From IMG/VR virus record IMGVR_UViG_2778261179_000020: a stretch of DNA of 23,195 nt; one strand, written 5' to 3'. This DNA comes from a virus. Taxonomy: Duplodnaviria > Heunggongvirae > Uroviricota > Caudoviricetes. This document shows, one piece after another, positions 1-16,887 of the stretch. The notes under the pieces are model-generated. The model had not been told where the DNA came from, ran no database searches, and saw only the letters and a program-made list of their open reading frames with translations. A program made the translations under genes and the position numbers. Each line of letters opens with the position of its first letter. Position 1 is the first letter of the stretch.

Positions 1-864
1 ATGAACAATTCTGAAGGTTTGAAGTCGTTTCAGCAATCGCTTGCTGGCCTGCCACAGTGGGTGTCTGAACGTATATTGCAGCAGATAAATCAGTTAACCC
101 ATTACGAGCCAGTAATCGGCATTATGGGTAAGAGCGGTGCCGGTAAATCCTCACTCTGCAATGCCCTGTTTGCCAGTGAGGTATCACCGGTCAGCGATGT
201 CGCGGCCTGTACACGTGAGCCACTGCGCTTTCGACTGCAGGTTGGCGACTGCTATATGACGCTGATGGATCTACCCGGCGTGGGCGAAAGTAGCACGCGC
301 GATACCGAGTATGCTGCGCTGTACCGAGAGCAGCTTTCTCGCCTCGACCTGGTACTGTGGCTGATTAAGGCTGATGACCGGGCACTGGCAGTGGATGAGC
401 ACTTTTATCATCAGGTGATTGGGGAGGCATACCGGCATAAAGTGCTGTTTGTTATAAGCCAGTCGGACAAGGCCGAACCCACCAGCGGTGGGGGACCGTT
501 GTCCACCGCGCAGAAGCAGAATATCAGCCGCAAAATCTGCCTGCTGCATGAGCTGTTCCAGCCCGTACATCCGGTGTGTGCTGTGTCGGTCCGTCTACAA
601 TGGGGGCTTAGGGTGATGGCCGAGCGGATGATTAAGTGCCTGCCACGTGAGGCCACCAGCCCGGTGGTGTCGCAACTCCAGCCTTCCTTTCGCACGACGG
701 TAGTCCGGGAACAGGCTCGAAGCGATTTTGGTGAAACCGTCGGTGCTCTACTCGATAGCATCAGTGCCTTTCCTCTGATACCCACACCTGTGCGGGCCGT
801 CATTCAGGCCGTGCGCACCACCGTGGTCTCTGTGGCCCGCGCCGTCTGGGATTTCTTCTTCTGA
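1..864 (+). CDS. P-loop GTPase, YkfA/YfjP/YeeP family
   Basis: 287-aa ORF with ATG at position 1; Walker A GIMGKSGAGKSS and downstream DLPG motif. Length matches recollection of K-12 YfjP/YkfA. Confidence 0.85.
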   Translation: MNNSEGLKSFQQSLAGLPQWVSERILQQINQLTHYEPVIGIMGKSGAGKSSLCNALFASEVSPVSDVAACTREPLRFRLQVGDCYMTLMDLPGVGESSTRDTEYAALYREQLSRLDLVLWLIKADDRALAVDEHFYHQVIGEAYRHKVLFVISQSDKAEPTSGGGPLSTAQKQNISRKICLLHELFQPVHPVCAVSVRLQWGLRVMAERMIKCLPREATSPVVSQLQPSFRTTVVREQARSDFGETVGALLDSISAFPLIPTPVRAVIQAVRTTVVSVARAVWDFFF

Positions 865-898
865 GTATTTAATCCATCCCTGTTATTTCCCTGACCCT

Positions 899-930
899 GT
901 CGCCGATGCGACGGGGATCCCCTTTATTTG
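899..930 (+). terminator. Putative intrinsic terminator after the GTPase gene
   Basis: Hairpin GTCGC-cgat-GCGAC followed by palindrome GGGGATCCCC and a T-rich tract TTTATTTGTTTT. Confidence 0.3.
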
Positions 931-955
931 TTTTCCCGTTATGAGGAGTCTGCTT

Positions 956-1777
956 ATGACCCGTCTGGCTTCGCGCTTTGGCGCAGCAAACCTTATCCGT
1001 CGCGACCGTCCGTTAACCCGTGAAGAGCTGTTTCGCGTAGTGCCCAGTGTGTTCAGTGAGGACAAACACGAGTCCCGTAGTGAGCGTTATACCTATATAC
1101 CCACCATCTCCCTGCTCGACAGCCTGCAGCGAGAAGGCTTCCAGCCATTCTTTGCCTGTCAGACCCGCGTGCGTGACCCGGGTCGTCGTGAACATACAAA
1201 GCATATGCTGCGTCTGCGGCGGGAAGGGCAGATCACCGGTATACAGGTGCCGGAAATTATTCTACTCAACTCTCACGATGGAACCAGTTCGTATCAGATG
1301 TTGCCGGGACTATTTCGTGCGGTTTGTCAGAACGGGCTCGTCTGCGGTGAGTCGTTTGGCGAGGTGCGGGTGCCACACAAGGGGGACGTGGTGAGTCAGG
1401 TGATTGAAGGCGCGTATGAGGTGCTGGGGATTTTTGACCGGGTGGAGGAGAAACGGGATGCCATGCAGTCGTTGCTGTTGCCACCCCCGGCACAGCAGGC
1501 ACTGGCAAAAGCCGCCCTCACATACCGCTTTGGTGAAGACCACCAGCCGGTGACTGAATCGCAGATCCTCTCCCCTCGCCGCTGGCAGGATGAGAGCAAT
1601 GACCTGTGGACCACGTACCAGCGGATTCAGGAAAACCTGATTAAGGGCGGACTCAGCGGGCGTAATGTTAAAGGCGAACGAACGCATACTCGTGCCGTGC
1701 GTGGCATTGACGGGGACGTGAAGCTTAACCGTGCGCTGTGGGTGATGGCTGAAACACTGCTCACACAACTGCATTAG
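956..1777 (+). CDS. DUF932 family protein, YafZ/YfjQ-like
   Basis: ORF 941..1777; the internal ATG at 956 has AGGAG 7 nt upstream and gives 273 aa, matching the recalled length of this family. Confidence 0.75.
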   Translation: MTRLASRFGAANLIRRDRPLTREELFRVVPSVFSEDKHESRSERYTYIPTISLLDSLQREGFQPFFACQTRVRDPGRREHTKHMLRLRREGQITGIQVPEIILLNSHDGTSSYQMLPGLFRAVCQNGLVCGESFGEVRVPHKGDVVSQVIEGAYEVLGIFDRVEEKRDAMQSLLLPPPAQQALAKAALTYRFGEDHQPVTESQILSPRRWQDESNDLWTTYQRIQENLIKGGLSGRNVKGERTHTRAVRGIDGDVKLNRALWVMAETLLTQLH

Positions 1778-1993
1778 ACGTTTTATGTTGCCACATTGTT
1801 ATTATCGGACACCACCTGTCCGAATTGCTACGTGCTCGTGTGCCTCAATCTCCCGGTAATAGCCTGTAACCCCCGTTACATCTGGCTTTTGTAGAAATAA
1901 AAAATAGTTTCTGCGTTGTCCATACCCTGTCCGCCCCCCTGTTTAAAGTAATCACATCATTTTCAGTCAGTTAACTTTCCTGGAGAACCTCTC

Positions 1994-2695
1994 ATGACAC
2001 AGGCAGAACGCCGCCATGACCGGCTGGCTGTCAGGCTGTCACTGATAATCAGCCGTCTGGTTGCGGGTGAAACGTTGAGCGTGCGCAAACTGGCGGCTGA
2101 GTTTGGCGTGTCGGTGCGCACGCTGCGGCGTGATTTTCGTGAGCGGCTGATGTATCTGGACCTGGAGTATCAGTCCGGATATTGCCGCTTACGCACAGCG
2201 GGCAGTGAGACGCAGATGGTGCCCGACGTGCTTATCTTTGCCCATCGCAGCGGGATGGCCGGTCTTTTTCCTGGCTTTGACCGCCGTCTGGTGAACGCAC
2301 TGCTGATGTGCGATGAGTCTCCCTGCGTTATAGCACCCGCCAATCCGGTTCCTTCGCCTTCAGGAGCATTGTCTTTCTGGAGACTGATTCAGGCCATTAC
2401 CGGGCGCAGGCGGGTAACGCTGATTGCCGAGGAGCAGCGCTGTGAGCGGCTGGCTCCCTGTCGGTTACTCATCCACCAGCAGGCCTGGTATCTGGTGGCA
2501 GAGCACGACGGACATATCGCCGTATTCACCCTGGATGAAATCCATCTGGTTCAGCCCCTGCAGGAGACTTTCCGGCGTAACGACAGTCTGTGTCGTCTTG
2601 TTGAAGACCCGGGCTTTATTCAGTCCTTACCCCATTTTCGCTTTATCCAGCAGTCATTGCTTACATTTGTTCCGGCTGACAGCCCACCGGAATAG
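1994..2695 (+). CDS. HTH transcriptional regulator, DeoR/WYL-type (YfjR-like)
   Basis: 233-aa ORF; N-terminal HTH-like segment [21 protein letters not shown]; GGAGAA upstream of the ATG. Confidence 0.7.
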
Positions 2696-2735
2696 CGCAG
2701 GCATTGTTATCAACCCGGCAACAGGGAGGAGCCCT

Positions 2736-2885
2736 ATGCCCGTTATTGCCATTATCGCCATTGTTGTCATCGTCATCATTCTGAACAAAACCGGGGTGTC
2801 CGACAGTCTCGCGGCCCTGACCCTTGCCACTGTTGCCGCACTGCTGACGGGAGGTGCGCAGCCGGTGCTGCCAGTGTCGCGCTGA
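2736..2885 (+). CDS. Small hydrophobic membrane protein (YpjK-like), apparently frameshifted
   Basis: ATG at 2736 with strong SD AGGGAGGA; MPVIAIIAIVVIVIILNK transmembrane segment; stop at 2883-2885. A second hydrophobic segment continues in another frame to 2971. Confidence 0.4.
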   Translation: MPVIAIIAIVVIVIILNKTGVSDSLAALTLATVAALLTGGAQPVLPVSR

Positions 2886-2970
2886 CACCGTTCGTCGGCG
2901 TGCCGGTGGGTATTTTCGTCGGCATTTATGTCTTTGCCAAAGTGGTACGTCTGATTTCAGGGAAAAAATA

Positions 2971-3414
2971 ATGAAATGTAAAACACTACCTCTGCTGGCG
3001 ATGGTTGCCACCACTCTGTTTCTGAGCGCCTGCGATGACAGGAGTGATGACCTGAAAGCTATCAGTAAATTTAAGGACCTCACGCCTCCGCGCTTCAGCG
3101 ATGTGGTCAGTCGGCAGGATGATGTCAGCGAAGAATGGTCACAGGTTGGCTTTTCATCAGGTCTCACCCTGCAGGTCTTACGTACCCGTGAGTCGCCCGA
3201 TGGCTGCGAGGGCGGTAGTTACTACTACCTCGTGGATATGCAAGAAAAAACCATCCAGCCGCTGATGAATGCGCTGTGTATTGCCGATAACATCAAACTG
3301 GAATACCAGGAGGTGACGGACCCGTATACCAAAGAAAAATACTTTGAGTACGCCCATGACGGCAAACTGATGGGGCAGCTACTGATACCCTCGAACCCTG
3401 ACAATCAGGAATAA
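2971..3414 (+). CDS. Lipoprotein (YafY/YfjS-like)
   Basis: 147 aa from ATG 2971; signal peptide with lipobox LSAC (MKCKTLPLLAMVATTLFLSACDD). The track ORF 2854..3414 has a non-native N-terminal extension. Confidence 0.7.
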   Translation: MKCKTLPLLAMVATTLFLSACDDRSDDLKAISKFKDLTPPRFSDVVSRQDDVSEEWSQVGFSSGLTLQVLRTRESPDGCEGGSYYYLVDMQEKTIQPLMNALCIADNIKLEYQEVTDPYTKEKYFEYAHDGKLMGQLLIPSNPDNQE

Positions 3415-3436
3415 AACAACGACAAAGGAGACAAGA

Positions 3437-3904
3437 ATGACAATACTTTCACTAAGTCGGTTTATGCTGGCGGGTGTACTGCTCGCGAGCTTTAATGCCT
3501 CTGCTATCCCGGGGTTCTGGCAGCAGGGTTACGGTCAGGGCAATACGGAATACAGCGTGACCGAAGCCAGCGGAAAGACGTTTACCATCAACTGCACAGG
3601 GAACCCGGACCAGAATGGTTTCTATCAGCATTCAGTCTTTCTTACCCTTGCCGATGACAAGATGGTCAGTTCGCACGATGACGACACTACTATCACCGTA
3701 GTGATGGATCACCAGCAGTACATTATTCCGTCCAGCCTGGGCTGGCGTAACGGCGATAACGCCTGGTTTGACTTCATCAGCAATATCTCTGAGGCCGGGC
3801 AGTTCGACGTCTACGTCAATGACCACAAAGCAGGGACCTTCACTGCGGACCGGAAGAACACTGAGAAAGTTCTGTCCACTCTCGGAGACTGCAGCAACGA
3901 CTGA
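3437..3904 (+). CDS. Secreted protein with signal peptide (YkfB/YfjT-like)
   Basis: 155-aa ORF; N-terminal hydrophobic signal [23 protein letters not shown]; AAAGGAGA upstream. Confidence 0.65.
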
Positions 3905-3980
3905 TAGTAGTATCTTCCCCAGCAAATCCACCCCGACAGCTAGCAGGCTGCCGGGGTTTTCTTTTATCAGGAGCCCGAAA

Positions 3981-4220
3981 ATGACCCAATCCGTGTTGCT
4001 GCCACCGGGGCCTTTCACCCGGAGACAAGCGCAAGCGGTCACTACCACGTACAGCAATATCACACTCGAAGACGACCAGGGCAGTCACTTCCGTCTGGTG
4101 GTTCGTGATACTGAAGGCCGGATGGTCTGGCGGGCATGGAACTTTGAGCCGGATGCCGGTGAAGGTCTTAACCGCTATATCCGCACCTCAGGCATCCGTA
4201 CAGACACGGCCACCCGCTGA
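3981..4220 (+). CDS. DUF905 family small protein (YkfF-like)
   Basis: 79-aa ORF from the internal ATG of track ORF 3768..4220, with AGGAG upstream; size and position match this family in CP4-type modules. Confidence 0.55.
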
Positions 4221-4273
4221 TCGCGAAGCATTTACCCGCATTCACCTCCCCGAACACACTTTATATCCCCATA

Positions 4274-4300
4274 CGCCAGCCATCGCCGCTGGCGTTTTTA
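4274..4300 (+). terminator. Putative intrinsic terminator or attenuator
   Basis: 7-bp stem CGCCAGC / GCTGGCG with 7-nt loop, followed by TTTTTA. Confidence 0.35.
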
Positions 4301-4317
4301 TTGACGGAGACATACCC

Positions 4318-4776
4318 ATGACAACACAGACGCAGCACGACCTCGCACCCGCTAACCAACCCGAATTTGAACTGACCGTCACGCCGGTCCCCGATGAACA
4401 GCGTATCGATTTCTGGCCACAGTACTTTGGCGCTATCCCGCAGTGGCTACTCCTGGAGCCGCATATCTTCGCCTGGATGGATCGCTTCTGTGAGGGCTAC
4501 AGCGGTGGTATCTGGTCGTTCTACACCCTCAGCAATGGCGGCGCATTTATGTCCCCCGAGCCTGACAACGATGAGACATGGCGTCTGTTTAACTGCCTGA
4601 ACGGTAACGATGCCCAAATGAGTGCAGAAGCAGCAGGTATTGCTGTCTGCCTGATTGCGTATAGCCACCATGCCTGCCGTACAGAATGTGACGCGATGAC
4701 CGCACACTATTACCGCCTGCGGGAGTATGCCATGCAACATCCAGAGGCTCACGCCATTCTGCGTATTATCGACTGA
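4318..4776 (+). CDS. Antirestriction protein, ArdB/KlcA family (YafX/YfjX-like)
   Basis: 152 aa from internal ATG 4318 with GACGGAGA upstream; sequence recognised as the KlcA/ArdB-like protein that precedes RadC in CP4 modules. Confidence 0.8.
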   Translation: MTTQTQHDLAPANQPEFELTVTPVPDEQRIDFWPQYFGAIPQWLLLEPHIFAWMDRFCEGYSGGIWSFYTLSNGGAFMSPEPDNDETWRLFNCLNGNDAQMSAEAAGIAVCLIAYSHHACRTECDAMTAHYYRLREYAMQHPEAHAILRIID

Positions 4777-4791
4777 CCGAAGGAGCAACAG

Positions 4792-5268
4792 ATGAAACAG
4801 CTTTCCTTTTTACCCGGCGAGATGACGCCACAGGACCGGCGTCTCATTCAGCGGGCGCTCAGGGCTCTGGACCGCCACCTGCATGAGCCCGGCGTAGCCT
4901 TCACCTCTACCCACGCCGTACGTGAATGGCTGCGACTGCATATGGCCGCGCTTGAACGGGAAGAGTTCCGGGTGTTGTATCTGGACAACCAGAATCAGTT
5001 GATTGCCCATGAAACGCTCTTCACCGGCACGATTAACCGCACCGAGGTGCATCCCCGGGAGGTGGTCAAACGTGCTCTGCACTTCAACGCGGCGGCGGTG
5101 ATACTCGCGCATAACCATCCTTCCGGCGAGACGACACCTAGCCAGGCCGACAAAACCCTCACGCAGCGACTGGTTCAGGTGCTTCAGCTGGTGGATATCC
5201 GTGTCCCTGACCATCTGATTGTCGGTGGCAGGCAAATCTATTCGTTCGCAGAACACGGTCTGCTTTGA
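4792..5268 (+). CDS. RadC-like JAB/MPN domain protein (YkfG/YfjY/YeeS-like)
   Basis: 158-aa ORF; JAMM-type motif HNHPSG; GGAG SD upstream. Confidence 0.85.
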   Translation: MKQLSFLPGEMTPQDRRLIQRALRALDRHLHEPGVAFTSTHAVREWLRLHMAALEREEFRVLYLDNQNQLIAHETLFTGTINRTEVHPREVVKRALHFNAAAVILAHNHPSGETTPSQADKTLTQRLVQVLQLVDIRVPDHLIVGGRQIYSFAEHGLL

Positions 5269-5276
5269 GGTATTAC

Positions 5277-5498
5277 ATGAAAATTATCAGTAAACGCAGG
5301 GCAATGACGATATACCGCCAGCATCCTGAGTCCCGAATCTTTCGCTACTGCACCGGCAAATACCAGTGGCACGGTAGCGTCTGTCATTACACCGGCAGGG
5401 ACGTTCCGGATATCGCCGGAGTCCTCGCGGTATACGCCGAACGCCGCCAGGACCGCAATGGGCCCTATACCTGCCTGATGAGCATCACCCTGAACTGA
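5277..5498 (+). CDS. DUF987 family protein (YkfH/YeeT-like)
   Basis: 73 aa from the internal ATG (MKIISKRRAMTIYRQHPESRIF...); conserved position between the RadC-like gene and the antitoxin. Confidence 0.65.
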   Translation: MKIISKRRAMTIYRQHPESRIFRYCTGKYQWHGSVCHYTGRDVPDIAGVLAVYAERRQDRNGPYTCLMSITLN

Positions 5499-5516
5499 CA
5501 ATAGTGGAGAACTGTA

Positions 5517-6196
<680 letters not shown>

Positions 6197-6261
6197 ACAT
6201 TGCGTACAACCTTCCCGATTTACATTTCTGAACTTCCTCCCTTGTTTACCTATTGCGTAAT

Positions 6262-6957: not shown

Positions 6958-7719
6958 TCACTGAATAGTCTCATTATCTTCAGGCTTAGTTATTTCATCT
7001 TCTAATTTATCCAACCACGTTATAGCACATTGATTCAAATCGATGATCAGATTTTCCACATACACAATTATTGAATTAAATTTCCTAGGGTTAACACTAC
7101 TTTTAAACTCCCCATGTCCCAAAGAATTTCTAAGGCCAACAACCTCACCTAGTTGCGATAAATCAAGTGATGAATAATCCAAACCTATAGCATCGAAATT
7201 CACCTTGACAACCATTTCATTCACATTGGAAAATGTCATAACTAATTCAGAAACATCGCAATCTGATAATGTGGATTTATTAAACCTGTCAATGTGTTGA
7301 ATTACCTCACTTGTTAGTTTAAACGCCCCCTTCGTAACTTTCTTTTTTATTTGGGCGCCATTATGGACAATGCTTCGGTGTGAGTCAGCATCATAAATAT
7401 TTTTTATCATATCTACATACTTGCTATAAAATGGTTCTCGTTGCAACCAAAGTGCTCGAATTTCTGCAGAGTATCTAAATGCCTCTCTATCTGAGAGTTT
7501 CAATGTATTTAAGCAAACTGACATTGTTTCAGTAAAAAAACCCTCCCAAGAAGAATAAATCATTGGGACCGATATTATTCTAAACATATCCTCCTTGTCT
7601 TTATCACCTGATCTCGACATAAACTCATTAATAGACTTTATGCTCTCAAGGAATCCAAGACTTTCATTTTTCGTCTTTTCCAACATCACCTTGAAATCAT
7701 CGAAATCTGATATTCTCAT
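6958..7719 (-). CDS. HEPN-domain protein (putative RNase), third gene of the MTase-DUF262-HEPN operon
   Basis: 253 aa from ATG at 7719 (the track start at 7743 is TTG); AAGGTG upstream; C-terminal Rx4H motif in GLRNSLGHGEF; start lies 1 nt after the DUF262 stop; AT-rich. Confidence 0.55.
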   Translation of the reverse strand: MRISDFDDFKVMLEKTKNESLGFLESIKSINEFMSRSGDKDKEDMFRIISVPMIYSSWEGFFTETMSVCLNTLKLSDREAFRYSAEIRALWLQREPFYSKYVDMIKNIYDADSHRSIVHNGAQIKKKVTKGAFKLTSEVIQHIDRFNKSTLSDCDVSELVMTFSNVNEMVVKVNFDAIGLDYSSLDLSQLGEVVGLRNSLGHGEFKSSVNPRKFNSIIVYVENLIIDLNQCAITWLDKLEDEITKPEDNETIQ

Positions 7720-7720
7720 T

Positions 7721-8833
7721 TTATCCAAACACCTTCTTCCCAAGAGCGATTCTTTTCTCTAATTTGGCTTTAGTATTAGATCCAGAACCAGTACAAGCTC
7801 TTAATTCTTTGATCTCACCATCCATTAAATAATCAAATCTTTTCGCCACCTCAGCAGGTGTTAAATTATCTACATTACTAAAAATACCAACAGCAACAAC
7901 ATCTAATAAATTAGTACTAAACGGGCCACTTGGAGCACCATCCTTTCTAAATTTAAATGCTTTACCAGATAAACCAGCAATATTTATCAAATCAAAAGTT
8001 CTTTTTATTTTTAATTCAAAATTAATATCAATAACATTATGTTCTGCCGCGTAGAACATAAATTCATCCAAAAAGTCAGTTACACTATGGCTAAATTTAT
8101 CCGCATAAGTCAAAGATGCCATAACTCGTAGCAAAGCTTCCTCAACACCTTGAGATTTTTGGCCATCTTCATTTATTCCAAGAGCTTGAACAATACCATC
8201 AATTTCGGCCATCTTACGTAAGCGATCTGCAAATTCATTCCCTGCTAATCTAGCCATGCAATTACGTATTTCCTGGTCACTCAAACGAACACCAGACCTA
8301 TTCAGTCGTTTAAAAACATTATATTTAGTTTCAGGTTTTGTTTCTTGCTCCAAAATAACAACATTTACTCGCGCATTTTTTATAGTTCGGCTAACTTTGT
8401 CCGGCAATCCTTTTGCAGTCCATCCATTTAATTCTGTAATTATAGGCACATCATCAAGAACAGTTGGATTACGGACATCATTTACAGAGTTTTGTTTCTT
8501 TGCATTATCTATTTCTTCCTTATTAAAAATATCCTCTGAAAAAAATCTAATTATAGTACTCACACGTTGCAATCCATCGATAACCTCCTGCTTACCATTA
8601 TTATCAATGTAGAAAAAAAGTGTTGGCGTAGGTATATTTAAAAGTAATGACTCGATAAATTGGCTTTGTCTTGCGTTATCCCAACGAAAAAGCCTTTGGT
8701 AGTCTGGAGAAATGGTTATCTCATTTTCTTTATATAGATTAATTACTTCACGCCATGATATGGTATAAGAATCAGTTACTACCTCATCTCTTTTTTCATC
8801 TATCTGAGATAGCAATTTAGTTACGTCATTCAT
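7721..8833 (-). CDS. DUF262 (ParB/Srx-like NTPase) domain protein
   Basis: 370-aa ORF; hallmark motifs DYQRLFRW and IDGLQR (DGQQR-like) in the N-terminal half; its ATG overlaps the MTase stop (ATGA). Confidence 0.75.
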   Translation of the reverse strand: MNDVTKLLSQIDEKRDEVVTDSYTISWREVINLYKENEITISPDYQRLFRWDNARQSQFIESLLLNIPTPTLFFYIDNNGKQEVIDGLQRVSTIIRFFSEDIFNKEEIDNAKKQNSVNDVRNPTVLDDVPIITELNGWTAKGLPDKVSRTIKNARVNVVILEQETKPETKYNVFKRLNRSGVRLSDQEIRNCMARLAGNEFADRLRKMAEIDGIVQALGINEDGQKSQGVEEALLRVMASLTYADKFSHSVTDFLDEFMFYAAEHNVIDINFELKIKRTFDLINIAGLSGKAFKFRKDGAPSGPFSTNLLDVVAVGIFSNVDNLTPAEVAKRFDYLMDGEIKELRACTGSGSNTKAKLEKRIALGKKVFG

Positions 8834-10056
8834 TTTGTTATCCTTATGATTTTTTCAAAATAAACTTTATCTTTAATATAATTTTTTGACTTGGTATTTA
8901 TTTGTCCAAATATTGCTTTAACTTGATCTTCTCTCACACATTTCGCTTCTGAAAACCCAATAGAAAGCGCCATTTCACAATAAATATCATAAAGCGGAAT
9001 CTCTATTTCCTTATAATATGAATTTTGTATTACAAAATAACCAGAGCAACCTACCTTTAAAACTCTAAAGATTTCCATTAATGACTCATACGCATCAGAA
9101 AAATATCTAATTTTATTTTTAAGGTAATAACTTCCAGATGCTCTTGATGTATGCGATGTTACCGATGACAAAACATCCATACACAATGGCCCCCATTTTT
9201 TATTAATTTCATCCGCAACTTTAGGCACAGTCGTCGTGCCCATCATTTCCTTTCTAAGAGACTTATATCCCTCACTCCCTAAAATTATTTCCAACTCAAG
9301 ACGAGTAGAAACGGCATAGTCTATTCGTGTTAAATACGGTGGCGATGTAATAACAAGATCAATTGTGTTACTTTTAATATTTAATTTTTTACTATCCACG
9401 TTTAAAATCGAGTAACATGCCCCCCCATTAGCGCTGCCATAATATTCACTTAACTGCTCACGCATAATTTTAAAATTTTTATTATATTCAAAACAAATAT
9501 CAAATTTATTATTAAAGTCTACTTTTTTAGAAATCCATGTAGGATTTGAAGTTGACCTAACATCAAGGACATTGCGAACAGTATAAAATAAAACACTGCA
9601 ATAAAATGCTTTTAAAGGATTTACGATATCATTTTGTCCTTTATCCATAAACTGATCACAGATACATTTATAAAACTTTTGTAACTGTTCAATAAGTGGA
9701 TAGCCCTTCGATGACTCAGTTATATCTTTTGTTTTTTTTCTAAAGCAAAGCAGTATCCTTTCCAGGAGTTGCTCTCCGGTATAATCCAGCGCTGAAATAT
9801 TATCCCTACTTTTGGCTGCAGCAAAATAGCTCATTACAGGATTAATATCTGCTCCAATACACTTTATGGTTTGCTTTTGACAAACTATACCAGTGGTACC
9901 GCTTCCCATCCAAGGATCAAGAACGGTAGCGGACGACTTAACTCCTTCAGCCTGCAAAACAGAAGCCACAAATGACTCTGAATAGCCCGCATAGTATGGA
10001 TGCCAAGAGTGAAGCCCCTTGCGTTCGTTTCTCCCTCTTTTCGCGCCTGCAATCAT
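8830..10056 (-). CDS. DNA amino-methyltransferase (N6-adenine or N4-cytosine)
   Basis: 408-aa ORF; AdoMet motif I DPWMGSGTT near the N-terminus and catalytic motif IV SPPY (LVITSPPYLTRIDY) mid-protein. Confidence 0.85.
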   Translation of the reverse strand: MIAGAKRGRNERKGLHSWHPYYAGYSESFVASVLQAEGVKSSATVLDPWMGSGTTGIVCQKQTIKCIGADINPVMSYFAAAKSRDNISALDYTGEQLLERILLCFRKKTKDITESSKGYPLIEQLQKFYKCICDQFMDKGQNDIVNPLKAFYCSVLFYTVRNVLDVRSTSNPTWISKKVDFNNKFDICFEYNKNFKIMREQLSEYYGSANGGACYSILNVDSKKLNIKSNTIDLVITSPPYLTRIDYAVSTRLELEIILGSEGYKSLRKEMMGTTTVPKVADEINKKWGPLCMDVLSSVTSHTSRASGSYYLKNKIRYFSDAYESLMEIFRVLKVGCSGYFVIQNSYYKEIEIPLYDIYCEMALSIGFSEAKCVREDQVKAIFGQINTKSKNYIKDKVYFEKIIRITK

Positions 10057-10405: not shown

Positions 10406-10585
10406 TTATCGCCGCAGCCTGTCCGGTTTCTTCCACTGATACGGCCTCACATCATCATGCTGGTGGCGTTCCTGTTGCAGCACAACGGAAACAGGCGCTG
10501 AACACCTGTTAATTTTGCTTGCTGGTTGTTTGATTTCGGCAATGCTGCGGAGCATCTCCAGCATATCGGCTTCGGTGATGGTCAT
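10406..10585 (-). CDS. Hypothetical small protein (59 aa), first ORF upstream of the MTase operon
   Basis: ATG at 10585 with AAGGTG 3-4 nt upstream; translation MTITEADMLEMLRSIAEIKQ...; not in the ORF track (under 60 aa). Confidence 0.25.
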   Translation of the reverse strand: MTITEADMLEMLRSIAEIKQPASKINRCSAPVSVVLQQERHQHDDVRPYQWKKPDRLRR

Positions 10586-10614
10586 GATTTACACCTTAGG
10601 AAATCTTAGGGGCT

Positions 10615-10875
10615 GGTTGACACTTTCCGGCTTAAGACCTTAATAAATCTTAATACCGCAGGTTGACACACTTGACACTTTTTCGCGAAAAACCTTATCA
10701 AACCTTAGCATTTCTAAGCATGGCAACTTGACACTTTTCGCTATTTTTTCGGTTTTTTGACGTGGTGAATATGGTACAAGGCCAGTAATGGCGAGGCATC
10801 CAGCGAGGTTGACACTTTTTCGCGTTCAGAGTGTAAAGTGTCAACCTGGCAAACTGCTCAACTTGACACTTTTTG
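10615..10875. repeat. Array of seven TTGACAC(TTTT) repeats (six direct, one inverted)
   Basis: TTGACAC at 10617, 10663, 10672, 10728, 10809, 10863 and inverted at 10838-10844. Copies at 10807-10818 and 10835-10846 form a 12-bp inverted pair GGTTGACACTTT / AAAGTGTCAACC. Confidence 0.6.
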
Positions 10876-10878
10876 AGG

Positions 10879-11406
10879 TCATTGATGGCCTGATTTTTCC
10901 CATTCAGCCAAGGCGTTTAGTCCTGCCTCACTCCATGTGTCCTGTTCATCGGGACAATCGCTGGCAACATAGCAGAGTTCGCAACGCAGCATACGAATTG
11001 CCAGCCTGGCATTACCTCGCAAATTGTATTTTTCAAAGTAATGCTGCCCTTCATCATCCTCAAGACAGATAGCACCATCATCAAGAAAGTGCACTTCCCA
11101 GCCTAATTCCCCGGCTGCATACAGCACACGCTGCTGTATGGCCTCGTCCGTTACTGGCGCAGGAATTTTACCGTCTCTGGCCTTAACTGCTTTCCAGAAC
11201 TCGCCCCATGTCATTTCCAGCGTTCTTTCTGGCCACATTTCAGAAATGGTGTCTTTCCCCTGTGCTGGTGGGCTGTTCCGCTGCTCTGTCGCTTCCACAT
11301 CAATTTTTTTACCGGACATGACCACTTCGCCTTTCTCGAGCCAGTCGTAAACTGTCTGGCGGCTTACGCCTTTGTATTTGGCGTATTCGGCTTTACTCAT
11401 CAACAT
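10879..11406 (-). CDS. Putative DNA-binding protein with N-terminal winged-HTH (Nu1/MerR-superfamily-like)
   Basis: Track ORF 10879..11424; the ATG at 11406 has GAGGTG 7 nt upstream. The N-terminal segment KGVSRQTVYDWLEKGEV resembles the HTH of lambda Nu1-type small terminases, by recollection. Confidence 0.5.
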   Translation of the reverse strand: MLMSKAEYAKYKGVSRQTVYDWLEKGEVVMSGKKIDVEATEQRNSPPAQGKDTISEMWPERTLEMTWGEFWKAVKARDGKIPAPVTDEAIQQRVLYAAGELGWEVHFLDDGAICLEDDEGQHYFEKYNLRGNARLAIRMLRCELCYVASDCPDEQDTWSEAGLNALAEWEKSGHQ

Positions 11407-11505
11407 GTAGCTCACCTCATGCATATACGATAAAAAATAATTTCATGCGGAAAGGGAATGCGTTGTGGGTATGGAGGAAAGGGGCAATAACCGCCCCTTA
11501 CTGAT

Positions 11506-11778
11506 TCAGTTGCGCCAGGATGGCTGGCTAAGCGTGGTTTTCATTACATCATTGACGACCTGTTTTACGATTTCTGTGTTGGCAGTCGTGCTTTCAACAT
11601 CAACAAAGCCATAATCGCCAATTTCCACTGTCAGGGATTCCAGTTTCTTCCCCAGTGCATCTGGCAACTCTCCACTGAACCGGTGCCGAAGATTTTCCAC
11701 CAGCAAAGCCCTGAATGCCTCGCTGTTCTCTTTTTTCTGCCATAGCTGGCGTTTATCCACTCTGATATTTAATTTCAC
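11506..11778 (-). CDS. Hypothetical protein (90 aa)
   Basis: GTG start with AGAGGTGAGG upstream; the start overlaps the stop of the upstream 55-aa ORF (GTGA). Confidence 0.45.
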   Translation of the reverse strand: MKLNIRVDKRQLWQKKENSEAFRALLVENLRHRFSGELPDALGKKLESLTVEIGDYGFVDVESTTANTEIVKQVVNDVMKTTLSQPSWRN

Positions 11779-11942
11779 AGCCTCACCTCTTTAAGTGCCT
11801 TATCCATCAGTTGCCGGGCAGTAACATGAATCGACGGTGCCACACCAAGCACAGATTTCTGACGCTCTTCGTCCTGGATGCGTTGCAGGGCTTCGATCTG
11901 CCTCCGGGAAAGTAAAACTGGCTTTACTCCGTGATTTTTCAT
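11775..11942 (-). CDS. Hypothetical small protein (55 aa)
   Basis: ATG at 11942 within track ORF 11775..12098; ATGA overlap with the upstream hydrophobic ORF; plausible charged-residue composition. Confidence 0.35.
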   Translation of the reverse strand: MKNHGVKPVLLSRRQIEALQRIQDEERQKSVLGVAPSIHVTARQLMDKALKEVRL

Positions 11943-12178
11943 GATGTTCCCTTCTGAATGACAATAATTGCAATTATTGCACAAATTGAAATGATACCAG
12001 AGACAATTGCAATAAATGAAACGAAAAGCATCAATAAACCAACCTTCGGCACTGAATGCTCTGATTTTTCTGCAAAGGTATGGCAGATGTTGGTGCATGC
12101 AAACATAAAGGCAATAGCAGAAGAAACAGCGGGGAGTGAAAAGGGGAAGTTTTTATAAATACACGATTGTCGCCTCAC
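11939..12178 (-). CDS. Possible small hydrophobic peptide; start uncertain
   Basis: Hydrophobic stretch VGLLMLFVSFIAIVSGIISICAIIAIIVI; its stop overlaps the next start; AT-rich; no clear SD. Confidence 0.25.
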   Translation of the reverse strand: MRRQSCIYKNFPFSLPAVSSAIAFMFACTNICHTFAEKSEHSVPKVGLLMLFVSFIAIVSGIISICAIIAIIVIQKGTS

Positions 12179-12220
12179 TGCAGGTTAACAGCCACAAACC
12201 CCATGATAATAACTTGTTAA

Positions 12221-12544
12221 TTATTTCATCAGATTTTTCATTATTTGCGCGATTGAGTACACAAGCAAAAACTCGGCAGCCGCAAGAGTATAAAAAACAT
12301 AAATTCGCTTAGCCCACCGACGATGAAAGAACTCCTCAGCATGGCCGAATGTTCGAGATACAAGCCATGCACCTACTGCACACAGAGCAGGTGCAATGAG
12401 CACAGTTATAAACCAGATTGTGATGCCCATCCCATGCCTACTGATAATAGCCATTGGTATTGCAAAAATGAATGTTAGAGCAGCATTAGCTAATAGAATA
12501 TCTTTTAAAGTATTTTCAATTAGTTTTTCTAGATTATCTTTCAT
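12221..12544 (-). CDS. Small membrane protein (107 aa, 2-3 predicted TM helices)
   Basis: ATG at 12544; hydrophobic segments ALTFIFAIPMAIISRHGMGITIWFITVLIAPALCAVGAWLV and IYVFYTLAAAEFLLVYSIA; low GC. Confidence 0.5.
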   Translation of the reverse strand: MKDNLEKLIENTLKDILLANAALTFIFAIPMAIISRHGMGITIWFITVLIAPALCAVGAWLVSRTFGHAEEFFHRRWAKRIYVFYTLAAAEFLLVYSIAQIMKNLMK

Positions 12545-12573
12545 CTAATCCCCCCGTTGGACATTAATATATA

Positions 12574-12596
12574 AAAGCCCCTTACTAAGGGGCTTT
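12574..12596 (-). terminator. Putative intrinsic terminator between the lipoprotein and membrane-protein genes
   Basis: Inverted repeat AAAGCCCC...GGGGCTTT (8-10 bp stem, short loop) flanked by A/T-rich sequence. Confidence 0.45.
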
Positions 12597-12607
12597 GCAC
12601 GGATTGT

Positions 12608-13750
12608 TTAAAGGGAACTTTTTTTCGCCCCTTCAATTTCTGCCTGACAAATTTCGTCATTTGTAAATGAGTACTGCAGATAGACATATCCCTGAGTGGA
12701 ATTGTTCGCTCTGGCCTCAATAGAGATAGTATCAATATTGTTTTTTAATGGTATTTCTTTTGTTCCCTTCCATGTGGCAGATAAGAAGCGTTCTTTTTTG
12801 TTTAGCCCCCTCATCCAGTCCTGAGGATCTTTCCAAATTGAACCAGCCAGCAAAAAGTCTGTAGTATCAGCCTTTCCATACAGAGAACTTAAAGAATTAC
12901 TCAATTCTTCAAACTTGGATTTAAGAGCCAATCCATAGCTATCAGTATCAATATTTTTTCCTAAAGCCCGTATTTGACATAAACCAGCTTTCGGGGAGAT
13001 CAACAAACCATACATTTCAAAATCTGCGTTTTGCTTCGGTAATTTATCAGAAGTATACAGATTCACACTGTCTGGTAGTGGCTTGAGCTTAGCACCGATC
13101 ATATCTTCGATGTTTTTCTGTGTAAGACCGGCTTCTAAGCCAAACGGACCATCCGCTGGCGGGAGTAAAGGAAGTTGATCTTGGGAATTTTTGGCTGTTA
13201 CTTCCGTTTCAGTACTGTTTTTTGCGTCATTATCTTGTACTGATGCCAGCTTAACTTCAGCGAGGCCATACTTGGCTGTGAGGTACTTTTGCTGCAACAT
13301 TGCCATAGTCTGCTCTTCAGTGGCAACAGTAGATAATTTTAGTACCTTTATCAGACCACCACTATACTGACGAGCATCAGCTTTGGCTTCGTTGATTTTT
13401 GCATCTAAGCTGTCAATTTCAGTTTTAATTGAAGCAGCAAGCTCAGGATCAGGTTTTACTCCAGATACAACAACATCAATTTTGGCGCCTGATTCAATAG
13501 CATTAATACGCTGTTCCAAAAGCGCTTTATTAGTTCCTAATATTTCCAGTCTTGCTGTTGTCAGATTTTTTATCAACCCACCAGAAAACTGCTGGTCAAC
13601 TTCCTTAGCTGCTGATATTTCACCTTCCGTTTGCGACAGTTCAGCTTTAAGAGCCGCTACTTCCTGTTTCTGTTCTGGCGTTAACTCTTCTGGCCCACAT
13701 CCGGTTAACATTACTATACCGACTAATGTTGCAATTAAAGTTTTATTCAT
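12608..13750 (-). CDS. Lipoprotein of unknown function, coiled-coil N-terminal half with an internal repeat
   Basis: 380-aa ORF; signal peptide plus lipobox MNKTLIATLVGIVMLTGCG; duplicated motif QFSGGLIKNL / QYSGGLIKVL; low GC. Confidence 0.65.
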   Translation of the reverse strand: MNKTLIATLVGIVMLTGCGPEELTPEQKQEVAALKAELSQTEGEISAAKEVDQQFSGGLIKNLTTARLEILGTNKALLEQRINAIESGAKIDVVVSGVKPDPELAASIKTEIDSLDAKINEAKADARQYSGGLIKVLKLSTVATEEQTMAMLQQKYLTAKYGLAEVKLASVQDNDAKNSTETEVTAKNSQDQLPLLPPADGPFGLEAGLTQKNIEDMIGAKLKPLPDSVNLYTSDKLPKQNADFEMYGLLISPKAGLCQIRALGKNIDTDSYGLALKSKFEELSNSLSSLYGKADTTDFLLAGSIWKDPQDWMRGLNKKERFLSATWKGTKEIPLKNNIDTISIEARANNSTQGYVYLQYSFTNDEICQAEIEGAKKSSL

Positions 13751-13884
13751 ATCCCTATTCCAAATGAAAATATTCAGATTAATCTTATCAGGAACCCAGA
13801 TGCAATTGAATATTCATCTGCTCAGCAACGTAGTAGATTTCCTCAGAAAGCATCAACAAAAAACCAAGAGAATCCCATCCTCTG

Positions 13885-14172
13885 TTACTGACTACAATTG
13901 TTCTTTTTTTGGTATTTCCTGAATGCCTCACCATTGGGCTGATGTAATCCCATCCCGGCATGTGCCCGGCTGATGGTTTTGCGCATCTCCCCGAAATTAT
14001 CCTGCCTTGCTGGTGGGCGTGCTGCCTTGTGGATACATTCCGCGCGACGTTTTGCCGCCAGCTCCCGTGCCTTGTCATCATTCGCCAGCATGATGACCTC
14101 AGCCCACCGCGCCGCCGCTCTCCGGTACAGACCACGCGCTTCCAGAGCTTCCGCTTTGCTGTCGTGAATCAT
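13885..14172 (-). CDS. PerC-family transcriptional regulator-like protein
   Basis: 95-aa ORF; N-terminus MIHDSKAEALEARGLYRRAAARWAEVIM matches my recollection of PerC/Pch proteins; its ATG overlaps the stop of the FinO-like gene. Confidence 0.55.
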   Translation of the reverse strand: MIHDSKAEALEARGLYRRAAARWAEVIMLANDDKARELAAKRRAECIHKAARPPARQDNFGEMRKTISRAHAGMGLHQPNGEAFRKYQKKNNCSQ

Positions 14173-14591
14173 GCGCCTGTTTTCTCCTTTGCTGCCCGAC
14201 GCTGACGTTTGCGTTTCTCATTCAGCGCAACCAGCCGCGTTTCTGCGTCCTGTTGTTCCTGTGGTGTCACCTCGCCGCACGGCTGGCATTTCAGGTCGTA
14301 GCGTACCCCACCAGCCATTAAGGCGCGGTAATAGCGCGGACACTGCGCATAAGATGCCAGCGTCGCACGCAATGCCCCTGGCCCGAATGCCAGCCCCCTG
14401 ACGGCGAGATCCTGCATCAGGTCGTCGAATATCCCCACCTTAAGCGGCTTCGGTGCTTCCCGGCTGAATAATTCAGGCCACAACTCAGTGAGGCGGTTAA
14501 CGCGTCTGCGGTTTTTTCGCTGCCGTTTGGTCATATGCCGCCACGGTGTTGCCCCTGTGGGCTTCTGCTGCGCTTCCTGGTTACCGGGCAT
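14169..14591 (-). CDS. ProQ/FinO-family RNA-binding protein
   Basis: Track start at 14594 is GTG; ATG at 14591. Segment LWPELF...KPLKVGIFDDL...ALRATLASYAQCPRYYRALMAGGVRYDLKCQPCGEVT fits the FinO/ProQ domain pattern. Confidence 0.6.
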   Translation of the reverse strand: MPGNQEAQQKPTGATPWRHMTKRQRKNRRRVNRLTELWPELFSREAPKPLKVGIFDDLMQDLAVRGLAFGPGALRATLASYAQCPRYYRALMAGGVRYDLKCQPCGEVTPQEQQDAETRLVALNEKRKRQRRAAKEKTGA

Positions 14592-14716
14592 CACTTTATG
14601 CGCCGATGTGGTTTTATCCGCTGCTGCGCCGCCTGCGTCGTTTTCTGCGGCGTGCCGTAAATACCTTTTGGTTTTCTGTTAATGGTCAGCTTAGTCATGC
14701 TTTGCCCCATCGTTAC

Positions 14717-15054
14717 AACTGTCTACCAACTGTCTACCGATATAATTGATTGATTTATTTAATGTTATTAACACATAACAAAAAAACAATCTGCAAACTG
14801 TCTACCAACGGTCTACCGCATTAATACATTGATAATTAATGATTTTTACTAAATGGTAGACAGTGTAGACAGTTAAAAGAGAAATTTAAAAAATGCCCCC
14901 TTAACTATCTGTTTTTTATATACCCCCCGTGGTTTAGGAATATAGAAATAACTGTCTACCTCTCTACCACATTGAAAATATCTTTATAATTCAAAATATT
15001 AATTGGTAGATGGTTGGTAGAGGGTTAAGTGAATCTGTCTACCAACCGTCTACC
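14717..15054. repeat. Iteron array, putative origin of replication
   Basis: About 12 copies of NGTCTACC, as four tandem pairs with 11-bp period (14717/14728, 14796/14807, 14950/14961, 15033/15044) plus inverted copies at 14855-14872 and 15005-15024, flanking an AT-rich core; immediately 3' of the primase gene. Confidence 0.6.
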
Positions 15055-15081
15055 TTTACGTTTCAGCTTATAAATTTCGTA

Positions 15082-16887
15082 TTATGTTCTGTCGTTAATC
15101 CCTGTAGCTGCTGGCAACCAGCCATCAGCATCATCATCTAACAGAACATTTGTTATCACTCGCCCTTTATCCGGGCCTTTAGTGCATTTAGCCCGCTTAT
15201 ACTCCTTTCCGTATTCCGCCATAGCTCCTGGCATATCAGTACCAAAGCGTGTCAGTGATACTGGTTTTCCCAGGCCATGCGCTGACATATAGGCTAAATA
15301 AGCATGATACAGGTATCGCCTCGGGCTAAATGGCACTATTTCCGCATTGCCCACCATCATTCCTTCACATTTAACCAACGACATCAGATAGCCGCAAAAG
15401 TCCACCAGTGAATCACCTTCGCGCTTTATCAACAGCGCTTCTTCTGATTTTTGCTGCTCATAAAGTAGTCTTTTAGCTTCGTCCTGGTCGGTAAATCGTG
15501 TTAGCAAATGGCGAATCACTACCGCCAGTTCGCCTTCTATCTTTTCCGCCAGCATGGGATCGCGTTCGTTCTCCGGTACGACCTCAGAGAAATTAAATAT
15601 CACCCTACGACGCGAGATCCCCCCGCTTCGGTCACTGAATGACATGGCGTTATTGTTTACCGCAAGCACTACTGCCGGAATACGTGTGGAGTAGGGGGCT
15701 TTATGTTTCGGATCAATTGCCACCTTGTCGCCGCCAGTAATTGCCTTAATTCCTGCACCATCGCCAGCGTAGCGAGTCATATCCGGCATGATAATCAGCG
15801 AAAAGCCAACTACTAACGCGCGTTCCCTTGCGTCTTCCAGAGCCTTCATGCTTGCCGATACTGTGTTGGCCTTACCCGCCAGCATGGTACAAATCTCAGC
15901 CATCACACTTTTACCGCTTCCGCCTGGGCCTGTTACCTCAAGGAATAACTGCCAGTCGTACCGGTTCGCCAGTACCATGAATAATGCCGCCAGTACGCGA
16001 TCAGCTTTACGATCATTATCTGCCACCGAACGACGCAGCCACTTCCAGAAATTCGGCGCATGTGTTGCCAGCGTTTCCCCCTCTGCTGGTGGGCTGAACG
16101 GTAATTCACTGGCATTTAACAACCAGTCATTTTTGTTATGCTCCCGAAAATTTCCCGTCCGGGTATCAAATACCCCGTTACTGAATCCAATAAGATTCCT
16201 GTCTGCCCCGCCCATAACAGGCAGGCTCAATTTCATTGTGTCTACGGCAAATTTAATGGCGTTTTGCGAATAACTGATTCCAGCATCAATAAAAATCTTC
16301 GCCATAGACCGCTGGAGTTCCTTATCAGATACAGGCACCCAGACAATTCCGTTGTAATGGTGAACTACATCAGAATCATCATTTATAGCCAGTGCTCTTC
16401 CATAATATTCAAGTAACACTTCCCCTCTCTGGCTGGCTCCCATCTGATTTAGTGCTGGCCTGGATAGGTCAATATTTTTTGTGGCTAATTTCATCGCTGA
16501 AACTTCCCCACTCTCTGCCTGTTCGCGGATCCGTTGCAGGTAGTCGCGCCAGTTTTCCGGCTCCCGGTCGGTGATACCTTTGTATAATTTCGCGTCCTGT
16601 ACACCAGCCAGCGCCAGCTTTTCAGCAATAGCATTGATCTGGATTGGCTCTATCTCCCCCGCGAGATAGACACGCGCAAAGCGGCGTTCATCGTCGACAA
16701 TGCGGATATTCGCCAGGTCTGCCAGTTGCTTTGGCCCCAGGTAAACAGGAGGCACGTTATCGCCGTGTTTTCGTCCTTCGCTTTCAATCCAGTGTTGAGC
16801 ATGGGCGTAAGCATCCGTCCCGGCAAAAATGATTACCTCGGTGAATTTATCCTTCGGCTGATATTTTAAATTCGGTGCGTTTTTCAC
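15082..16887 (-). CDS. Primase/helicase-like replication initiator (P4-alpha / D5-type P-loop NTPase)
   Basis: 601-aa ORF; Walker A GPGGSGKS; GTG start with GGGAGGT upstream, overlapping the preceding gene's stop. Confidence 0.85.
   Translation of the reverse strand: MKNAPNLKYQPKDKFTEVIIFAGTDAYAHAQHWIESEGRKHGDNVPPVYLGPKQLADLANIRIVDDERRFARVYLAGEIEPIQINAIAEKLALAGVQDAKLYKGITDREPENWRDYLQRIREQAESGEVSAMKLATKNIDLSRPALNQMGASQRGEVLLEYYGRALAINDDSDVVHHYNGIVWVPVSDKELQRSMAKIFIDAGISYSQNAIKFAVDTMKLSLPVMGGADRNLIGFSNGVFDTRTGNFREHNKNDWLLNASELPFSPPAEGETLATHAPNFWKWLRRSVADNDRKADRVLAALFMVLANRYDWQLFLEVTGPGGSGKSVMAEICTMLAGKANTVSASMKALEDARERALVVGFSLIIMPDMTRYAGDGAGIKAITGGDKVAIDPKHKAPYSTRIPAVVLAVNNNAMSFSDRSGGISRRRVIFNFSEVVPENERDPMLAEKIEGELAVVIRHLLTRFTDQDEAKRLLYEQQKSEEALLIKREGDSLVDFCGYLMSLVKCEGMMVGNAEIVPFSPRRYLYHAYLAYMSAHGLGKPVSLTRFGTDMPGAMAEYGKEYKRAKCTKGPDKGRVITNVLLDDDADGWLPAATGINDRT

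Follow-up and report, generated by a model that had tools for sequence, protein, structure and literature searches.

A modular lipoprotein carried as cargo by an Escherichia coli phage satellite, with homologues beside tape-measure genes of temperate phages

A 23,195-nucleotide stretch of Caudoviricetes DNA (IMG/VR record IMGVR_UViG_2778261179_000020; hereafter the window) carries, as cargo of a phage satellite, the gene for a 380-residue lipoprotein (12608-13750, minus strand) that is predicted to be exported and is constrained and modular, built from a lipid anchor, a duplicated antiparallel hairpin stalk, a linker and a head. Together with its conserved upstream element and its terminator, the gene moves as one unit between satellites and temperate phages, and in the phages its homologues lie at or near the gene for the tape-measure protein. 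The product may be a periplasmic superinfection-exclusion factor that blocks phage DNA entry, a reading to which we assign a probability of roughly 40%. The fold family is new, the modular architecture is clean and the association with tape-measure genes is conserved.

Architecture and family of the lipoprotein

The lipoprotein gene, delimited by an open reading frame (ORF) scan and by its homologues, encodes 380 residues plus a stop codon. An earlier note, made from the letters of the window alone, had described a 380-aa lipoprotein with lipobox LTGC, a duplicated SGGLIK motif in a coiled-coil half and a distinct C-terminal domain, and each of these features is borne out. In the N terminus (MNKTLIATLVGIVMLTGC), a basic n-region and a hydrophobic core precede the lipobox L-T-G-C, which agrees with the consensus [LVI][ASTVI][GAS]C of Lgt/LspA substrates. 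In an alignment of 26 homologues (59-89% identity), G17, C18, G19 and P20 are invariant and L15 is kept in at least 90% of sequences. The same alignment places the signal peptide and lipobox at residues 1-18 (13697-13750, minus strand), with Gly at the +2 position. Asp at +2 causes inner-membrane retention through Lol avoidance; under this rule, Gly+2 predicts sorting of the lipoprotein to the outer membrane.

The mature protein contains an internal repeat in which residues 36-85 and 105-154 share 34% identity across 50 residues (E = 2e-7, for a single comparison), the two copies being centred on QFSGGLIKNL and QYSGGLIKVL. Each copy is a helix-turn-helix hairpin in the AlphaFold2 model (helices 25-53 and 59-87, then 102-126 and 133-161), with SGGLIK at the turn. 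Model and repeat alignment together define stalk repeat 1 as residues 24-97 (13460-13681, minus strand; turn QFSGGLIK) and stalk repeat 2 as residues 98-161 (13268-13459, minus strand; turn QYSGGLIK). The next ~33 residues (162-194; 13169-13267, minus strand) form a disordered, variable linker, which has a predicted local distance difference test score (pLDDT) below 50 and comprises the least conserved columns of the homologue alignment. The linker leads to the head, residues 195-380 (12611-13168, minus strand), which is modelled on its own as a confident alpha/beta domain (mean pLDDT 96.5) and also exists as stand-alone proteins. The head carries the motifs GPFGL and GSIWxxPxDW and a conserved cysteine pair, Cys258/Cys368. 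One distant homologue has lost both cysteines together, so a periplasmic disulfide between them is plausible. More than 320 lipoprotein homologues were found, and the ratio of nonsynonymous to synonymous substitution rates (dN/dS) is 0.05-0.11 against homologues of 77-88% identity, indicating strong purifying selection; the gene is therefore real and constrained. The protein is not a spanin, given its size, its globular head, the absence of a C-terminal transmembrane (TM) segment and the absence of a lysis cassette from the island.

Family searches placed the protein in no known group. The lipoprotein matched nothing in Pfam, PHROG or PADLOC and nothing meaningful in NCBIfam, where matches to LpoB and SA0632 covered only the signal-peptide region and fell far under cutoffs (LpoB, E = 0.0035). 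PDB sequence searches, run with the lipoprotein and with each of the two profiles, gave no hits beyond antibody chains and a designed antiparallel coiled coil, and the head domain had no significant PDB match. Homology to a housekeeping or structural protein, which the earlier note named as an outcome that would speak against its proposal, was thus looked for in Pfam, PHROG, PADLOC, NCBIfam and the PDB and was found in none; the structure prediction it proposed for the C-terminal domain gave a confident alpha/beta fold with no significant PDB counterpart. A ‘TolA-binding protein’ label on one Rahnella homologue is backed by no family match and was set aside. Going by these searches, the head is a family not described before and a new fold family.

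Searched with a profile, a set of 1.84 billion representatives yielded 2,869 proteins at E ≤ 1e-3, among which the stalk and head modules occur separately. The head is also found as secreted proteins or lipoproteins of ~200 aa, and some homologues instead have a TM-helix anchor with a cytoplasmic N-terminal extension. The stalk (the whole N-terminal module) also occurs joined to other C-terminal domains, of at least five kinds, including one that resembles VasI of the type VI secretion system (T6SS); the paralogue in question combines the same stalk with the VasI domain (PF11319, E = 4e-9). Apart from that earlier VasI case, Pfam gave no match to the stalk-fused C-terminal domains of ten proteins. 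The stalk is joined to VasI in P0167 and P0171, to a ~130-aa domain ending in SILYxDGxxRDF in P0172, P0240 and others, and to two further head types in P0168 and P0199 and in P0178 and P0204; among all these fused domains, only VasI is present in Pfam. Even without an anti-phage role, stalk and head would be two widespread, uncharacterised periplasmic modules worth family definitions.

A mobile cargo unit in a phage satellite

The lipoprotein gene is bounded by its own signals. In the window, a conserved element (TGATAAGATTAATC; 13777-13790, minus strand) starts 40 nt ahead of the ATG, and its consensus, TGnTAGGATTAATC, is kept 43-45 nt ahead of the ATG in 17/17 Enterobacterales loci compared, with unrelated sequence farther upstream. 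The element is similar to an extended -10, and a 10-bp dyad, AGATTAATCT, overlaps it. A two-hexamer sigma-70 scan detected no promoter upstream of the gene, so we only infer that the element acts as a promoter. In most loci this dyad is GGATTAATCC, and the window has AGATTAATCT; the change is symmetrical, retains a perfect 10-bp palindrome and hints at a protein-binding site overlapping the -10-like hexamer. On the other side of the gene, 12 nt past the stop codon, a hairpin scan located an intrinsic terminator with a 10-bp stem and a T-run (12574-12596, minus strand), in agreement with the earlier note. In most other genomic contexts, too, the lipoprotein gene is followed by a terminator hairpin, the sequence of which differs.

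The window matches E. coli chromosomes at 99.9% identity, and the island in which the gene lies adjoins tRNA-Thr (thrW) and proA; no tRNA gene was found within the window itself. The island begins with an integrase, a helix-turn-helix (HTH) regulator, AntA/B, an Icd-like gene and DUF4222, and continues with a D5/DUF5906 primase, ProQ/FinO and PerC up to the cargo block. Beyond the cargo lie a 55-aa gene, a 90-aa gene and a TerS-like HTH protein (phrog_57, E = 2e-6), and the island ends in a module of methyltransferase, DUF262 and HEPN genes. The phage-inducible chromosomal island (PICI) EcCIMP1 has the same layout and sits at the same site, between proA and yagU (PMC11773190). Judged by its integrase, HTH regulator, AntA/B, primase (D5_N/DUF5906), PerC and TerS-like genes and by its place beside tRNA-Thr/proA, the island is a PICI-type phage satellite integrated beside thrW/proA.

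The extent of the cargo is given by an empty site in a sister island. The island of an enterotoxigenic E. coli strain (NZ_LR883000, L179) is 94% identical to window positions 11400-12022 and 13871-14599 and has only 17 bp in place of 12023-13870. The cargo is therefore a 1,848-bp presence/absence block (12023-13870, minus strand) that comprises the lipoprotein unit and a gene for a 107-aa protein and is flanked by the PerC gene and by the region preceding the 55-aa gene; these borders replace the earlier ones of 11939-13750. The block had also been called cargo and AT-richer than its flanks, and both descriptions stand; it is horizontally acquired cargo of a phage satellite. The GC content of the earlier-noted region is 0.396 overall, that of the lipoprotein gene 0.401 and that of the 107-aa gene 0.383, with a value at third codon positions of 0.32 in each gene. 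By comparison, GC content is 0.556 in the PerC gene, 0.596 in the ProQ/FinO gene, 0.506 in the 55-aa gene and 0.498 in the HTH/TerS-like gene, that is, ~0.40 for the block versus 0.50-0.60 for the flanks. In other genomic contexts, the GC content of the lipoprotein gene is below that of its flanks in 12/16 cases and at or near parity in the remaining 4, which are from low-GC hosts. The unit has three marks of a moron, being present or absent between homologous elements (L179 lacks 12023-13870), deviating in base composition (GC 0.40 versus 0.50-0.60) and having its own terminator. Most of the block is held by 104 of 5,426 complete E. coli genomes (~2%), including O104:H4 outbreak strains. Rfam searches found no RNA family within 10500-15100.

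The cargo slot is downstream of pri and ahead of the packaging genes. In PICIs, the mid-element accessory region adjacent to pri is reported to carry immune genes, and the paper describing this region mentions no lipoprotein (PMC11364771).

Tape-measure genes and superinfection exclusion

Homologues of the lipoprotein occur in three settings, namely satellites, lambdoid-type prophages and decayed islands at proA. In the lambdoid-type prophages, the gene follows the tail-tube and DUF6246 genes and lies at or near the tape-measure gene, after which come gpM/L/K/I/J-like genes. It is immediately upstream of a 1111-aa tape-measure gene in IMG/VR prophage loci L065-L072, one gene away in Proteus mirabilis (L023) and similar IMG/VR prophage loci, two genes away in Pantoea and four genes downstream of the tape-measure gene in Xenorhabdus. 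Two sequenced temperate phages are independent cases of the arrangement. Klebsiella phage 2b LV-2017 has an unannotated head-only lipoprotein ORF with lipobox LLTGC, which matches the head profile (hhalign probability 96.9%, E = 1.3e-10) and ends 60 bp before the tape-measure gene. The best structural match in BFVD is ORF21 of Erwinia phage Midgardsormr38 (E = 4.9e-7, TM-score 0.61), also a head-only lipoprotein, which ends 61 bp before the tape-measure gene. Both head-only phage lipoproteins have Asp at +2. In phages, the gene is part of the late tail operon, pointing the same way as the tape-measure gene and lying 60-65 bp from its start, and the adjacency to tape-measure genes holds in homologues down to 16-28% identity. 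In a collection of 50,697 phage records, tblastn gave no match to the full-length lipoprotein, which fits a temperate association, or to one stand-alone homologue, and a second stand-alone homologue had a weak match, to Klebsiella phage 2b. The ORF of the latter phage (L181 5917-6591; KY271395.1, ~35448-36122) encodes ~204 aa and is preceded by an unannotated 192-aa ORF with an HExxH motif.

Satellites of the Klebsiella/Enterobacter type, which encode an integrase, an AlpA-type regulator and a primase, carry the lipoprotein amid envelope and defence cargo. In the Klebsiella-type satellite, it lies between a DUF4411 plus Peptidase_M78/HTH pair and an Imm_superinfect plus Zn-ribbon gene; this cluster includes the PF14373 domain (E = 3.9e-16) with its Zn-ribbon two genes downstream, and also another small lipoprotein. 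In the Klebsiella/Enterobacter type, the genes after the lipoprotein are a homologue of the 55-aa gene and one for a TMP_3 tape measure (E = 2.6e-51). Small membrane proteins with a C-terminal Zn-ribbon recur beside the lipoprotein in both satellites and prophages (L047 11808-12131 and L022 8775-9362), one of them with Imm_superinfect, and Zn-ribbon proteins appear twice among the neighbours of stand-alone metagenomic head genes.

We note that several satellites have a tape-measure gene of their own, encoding ~860-1,200 aa (PF20155, TMP_3), at L047 13161-15965 and also in L017, L018/L062, L048-L058 and L061. These elements encode an integrase, an AlpA-type regulator and a primase and come from Klebsiella-, Enterobacter- and Pantoea-type hosts. 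L017 additionally has a DUF6246 gene and the Klebsiella/Enterobacter-type loci a 123-aa gene, and both families recur in the tail or head-tail modules of prophages. No description of satellites carrying tail genes was found in the literature searched.

Comparison with characterized exclusion systems gives partial parallels to each. Gene 15 of HK97, the first described moron, specifies a protein of the inner membrane that acts in exclusion, its specificity mapping to the tail region (PMC3594210). In prophages and phages, homologues of the lipoprotein fill the same slot, between the tail-tube and assembly-chaperone genes on one side and the tape-measure gene on the other; both proteins are products of moron-style units with GC unlike their flanks, and they share an envelope location, which for the lipoprotein is predicted. 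In contrast, there is no sequence or fold relation between them and no match of the lipoprotein to the gp15/YebO family; gp15 is a small single-pass inner-membrane protein, whereas the lipoprotein has 380 aa and combines a stalk with a globular head. That gp15 excludes phages is demonstrated, whereas for the lipoprotein exclusion is a hypothesis, and the window copy sits in a satellite without tail genes. T5 Llp and the Cor proteins of phi80, N15 and T1 are phage-encoded lipoproteins that act from the periplasm and have an intramolecular disulfide, as predicted for the present protein, and their genes adjoin the virion gene whose function is countered, as Llp does beside pb5 (PMC9586334). The neighbour of the lipoprotein is a tape-measure gene rather than a receptor-binding gene, and at 380 aa versus ~60-80 aa, with no Pfam or PHROG match to this group and no sequence similarity detected, the protein differs from Llp/Cor. 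The pri-downstream immune region of PICIs, which holds for example Tai, has the same position in the element, before the packaging genes; Tai blocks tail assembly (PMC11364771), whereas the window cargo is a predicted exported lipoprotein matching no PADLOC defence model.

For the T4 Imm type, the parallel is that PF14373 and a Zn-ribbon gene share a cargo cluster with the lipoprotein in Klebsiella-type satellites; neither the lipoprotein nor the 107-aa protein matches PF14373. The lipoprotein is also laid out like the outer-membrane lipoproteins of the LpoA/LpoB type, which have long linkers: behind the lipid anchor comes a spacer, elongated or disordered, carrying a globular head that could reach across the periplasm. 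The only computed link is the weak LpoB match at the signal peptide described above, which amounts to no real homology, and the Lpo proteins are housekeeping activators of penicillin-binding proteins whereas the lipoprotein gene is mobile cargo. The lipoprotein is outside Llp/Cor, gp15/YebO, Imm and every PADLOC family. It resembles the known exclusion families in its apparent logic, as mobile-element cargo that is located in the envelope and encoded beside a virion gene that it possibly counters.

The slot downstream of pri, the Imm_superinfect neighbour and the tape-measure slot all fit an anti-phage role in the envelope. If the lipoprotein is an exclusion factor, it would be expressed from the resident element and act in the periplasm against incoming phage, its head binding a DNA-delivery component close to the inner membrane on the periplasmic face, the place where tape-measure proteins are believed to open a route for the DNA. 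Candidate targets are the ejected tape-measure or tail-tip proteins of incoming siphophages, as proposed for HK97 gp15, or a membrane protein that these phages use; a third option is an effect on a receptor exerted from within the periplasm, comparable to that of T5 Llp on FhuA. Stalk and linker could let an outer-membrane-anchored copy reach a site at the inner membrane. Head-only forms with Asp+2, TM-anchored homologues and a Gly+2 form equipped with a stalk and a 33-residue linker together suggest that the head is positioned near the periplasmic face of the inner membrane.

Several observations weigh against this reading. No family member has a demonstrated function, and the literature searched held no paper on the WP accession of the lipoprotein or on a PICI with a lipoprotein. 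The null result of the sigma-70 scan upstream of the gene makes expression in the lysogenic state a presumption. The E. coli satellite itself has no tape-measure gene, and the adjacency seen elsewhere could reflect a general hot spot for morons or one inherited ancestral insertion, in either case without functional coupling. Stand-alone head genes at 25 metagenomic loci have heterogeneous, often housekeeping, neighbours, so the head domain is not phage-specific, and the stalk-fusion proteins with several unrelated heads were recovered mainly from metagenome collections. At these 25 loci, no Pfam family occurs in more than 2 of 123 neighbours; with no recurrent neighbour, a conserved operon partner was rejected. 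Single stand-alone cases lie on a phage-like contig or beside an integrase, a restriction-modification system and VapBC.

A host-fitness role, in which the lipoprotein is a lysogenic-conversion envelope factor unrelated to phage and carried for the benefit of the host (serum or complement resistance, stress tolerance or adhesion), is an unlikely account, though the least unlikely of the rivals. Lambda Bor and Lom are lysogenic-conversion envelope factors of this kind. The structure and position of the gene are moron-like, stand-alone head genes are scattered in ordinary chromosomal contexts of many bacteria and the stalk module is widespread outside mobile elements; the element also encodes a PerC-family regulator, a class tied to virulence regulation in PICIs (PMC11773190). 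Left unexplained are the tape-measure adjacency, which reaches homologues of 16-28% identity, and the co-location with Imm_superinfect and defence-type genes, and family-model searches detected no similarity of the lipoprotein to Bor, Lom, Iss or TraT.

The same tape-measure linkage is left unexplained if the lipoprotein is a periplasmic immunity protein or inhibitor directed at antibacterial toxins (T6SS or Rhs effectors, colicins or lysozymes) with the head as toxin binder. The paralogue joining the same stalk to a VasI domain is consistent with such a function and the conserved disulfide suggests a stable periplasmic binder, yet no effector or T6SS gene lies beside the lipoprotein gene in ~100 loci examined, and we consider this explanation improbable.

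We think it slightly more doubtful still that the lipoprotein serves the lytic or transfer cycle of its own element, co-expressed with tail genes for protection from debris, for lysis timing or to condition the envelope for tape-measure passage. The place of the phage genes inside the late tail operon, in line with the tape-measure gene, would accord with this, as would the precedent of T5 Llp, a lytic-cycle lipoprotein encoded beside the receptor-binding gene (PMC9586334); against it, the lipoprotein gene comes with a conserved upstream element and a terminator of its own, is retained in satellites and decayed islands without tail genes and is still under strong purifying selection in these tail-less contexts.

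If the lipoprotein is a superinfection-exclusion factor, its fold and architecture are unrelated to those of Llp/Cor, gp15, SieA and Imm, and it is carried by PICIs of ~2% of complete E. coli genomes. The tape-measure linkage would then provide a handle on the passage of DNA through the periplasm and inner membrane, to our knowledge the step of siphophage infection that is least understood. Cargo of this sort can restrict the hosts open to therapeutic phages, and current defence-finding tools miss the lipoprotein. A more far-reaching version, which we regard as a long shot, is that the head represents a new class of periplasmic anti-phage factor that intercepts siphophage tape-measure or ejection proteins or their inner-membrane docking site, that the stalk is a tether for interchangeable heads, and that the ~2,900-member family comprises modular envelope immune or binding receptors of Gram-negative bacteria, the phage and satellite versions of which would be matched to their own tape measures.

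Neighbouring genes and elements in the window

The second gene of the cassette (12221-12544, minus strand), recognized by ORF scan and hydrophobicity, encodes the 107-aa protein, with hydrophobic segments at residues ~15-35, 38-62 and 81-101, in keeping with the multi-TM protein predicted before. Neither this protein nor the small ORFs of the region gave anything meaningful in Pfam, PHROGs, PADLOC or NCBIfam, and, like the lipoprotein, they matched no known defence system in PADLOC-DB v2. The earlier proposal of a lipoprotein and membrane-protein pair does not hold, because only in the Escherichia clade (L007 and 17 IMG/VR loci) is the lipoprotein gene followed by the 107-aa gene and a terminator separates the two genes. 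A two-component envelope system formed by these proteins is therefore poorly favoured: although both genes share one low-GC cassette, are gained or lost jointly in E. coli islands and keep an invariant arrangement in the 17 Escherichia-type IMG/VR loci, lipoprotein homologues of 47-89% identity in Enterobacter, Klebsiella-type satellites, Pantoea, Xenorhabdus and Proteus have no 107-aa gene next to them, the Yokenella copy of that gene is fragmented, the terminator between the genes is strong and no relative of the 107-aa protein was detectable in the rest of IMG/VR. Its absence beside other homologues and the fragmented Yokenella copy rule it out as an obligate partner, and we infer that it is a separate, lineage-specific passenger of the cassette.

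The further hydrophobic peptide that had been suggested at 11939-12178 probably corresponds to no gene. Its translation stems from AT-rich repeats of the ATTGCAAT type, in which E. coli copies show repeat-slippage indels of +9 and -39 bp. In some E. coli copies, a further 10-bp deletion near 12090, upstream of the stretch, would frameshift any earlier start, so the ORF is unsupported. In the sister island, the hydrophobic reading lacks its own start codon and is in another frame relative to the next gene, and the RefSeq annotation at this stretch is a 66-aa ORF on the opposite (plus) strand. Neither a 79-aa nor a 30-aa version was retained as a gene in view of the indels and the sister-island frame. 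Comparison with the sister island assigns the AT-rich repeat and palindrome region (11943-12022, no strand assigned; ATTGCAAT) to the non-coding island backbone upstream of the 55-aa gene rather than to the cargo. Palindromes of ATTGCAAT and a 9-bp repeat, TGCAATAAT, occupy 11943-12060, directly upstream of the 55-aa gene, and this stretch is possibly the regulatory (operator/promoter) region of that gene. The 55-aa protein (MKNHGVKPVLLSRRQIEALQRIQDEERQKS...; 11775-11942, minus strand) has homologues of 39-62% identity in L014, L017, L018 and L047-L062. The protein, probably a small regulator, matches no family, and its gene heads the downstream module, whether this is of the tape-measure or the TerS-like type.

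At the far end of the island, a three-gene module with a GC content of 0.30-0.35 (6958-10056, minus strand) encodes a DNA methyltransferase, a DUF262 protein (PADLOC NsnA, E = 1.2e-55; PD-T4-2_A, E = 1.1e-41) and a HEPN-like nuclease of the RefSeq MAE_28990/MAE_18760 family, and is probably a separate defence cargo. Positions 1-6200 of the window have a distinctly higher GC content of 0.50-0.60, and the matching RefSeq record contains only hypothetical proteins and one transcriptional regulator; this part looks like a different element or island abutting the satellite.

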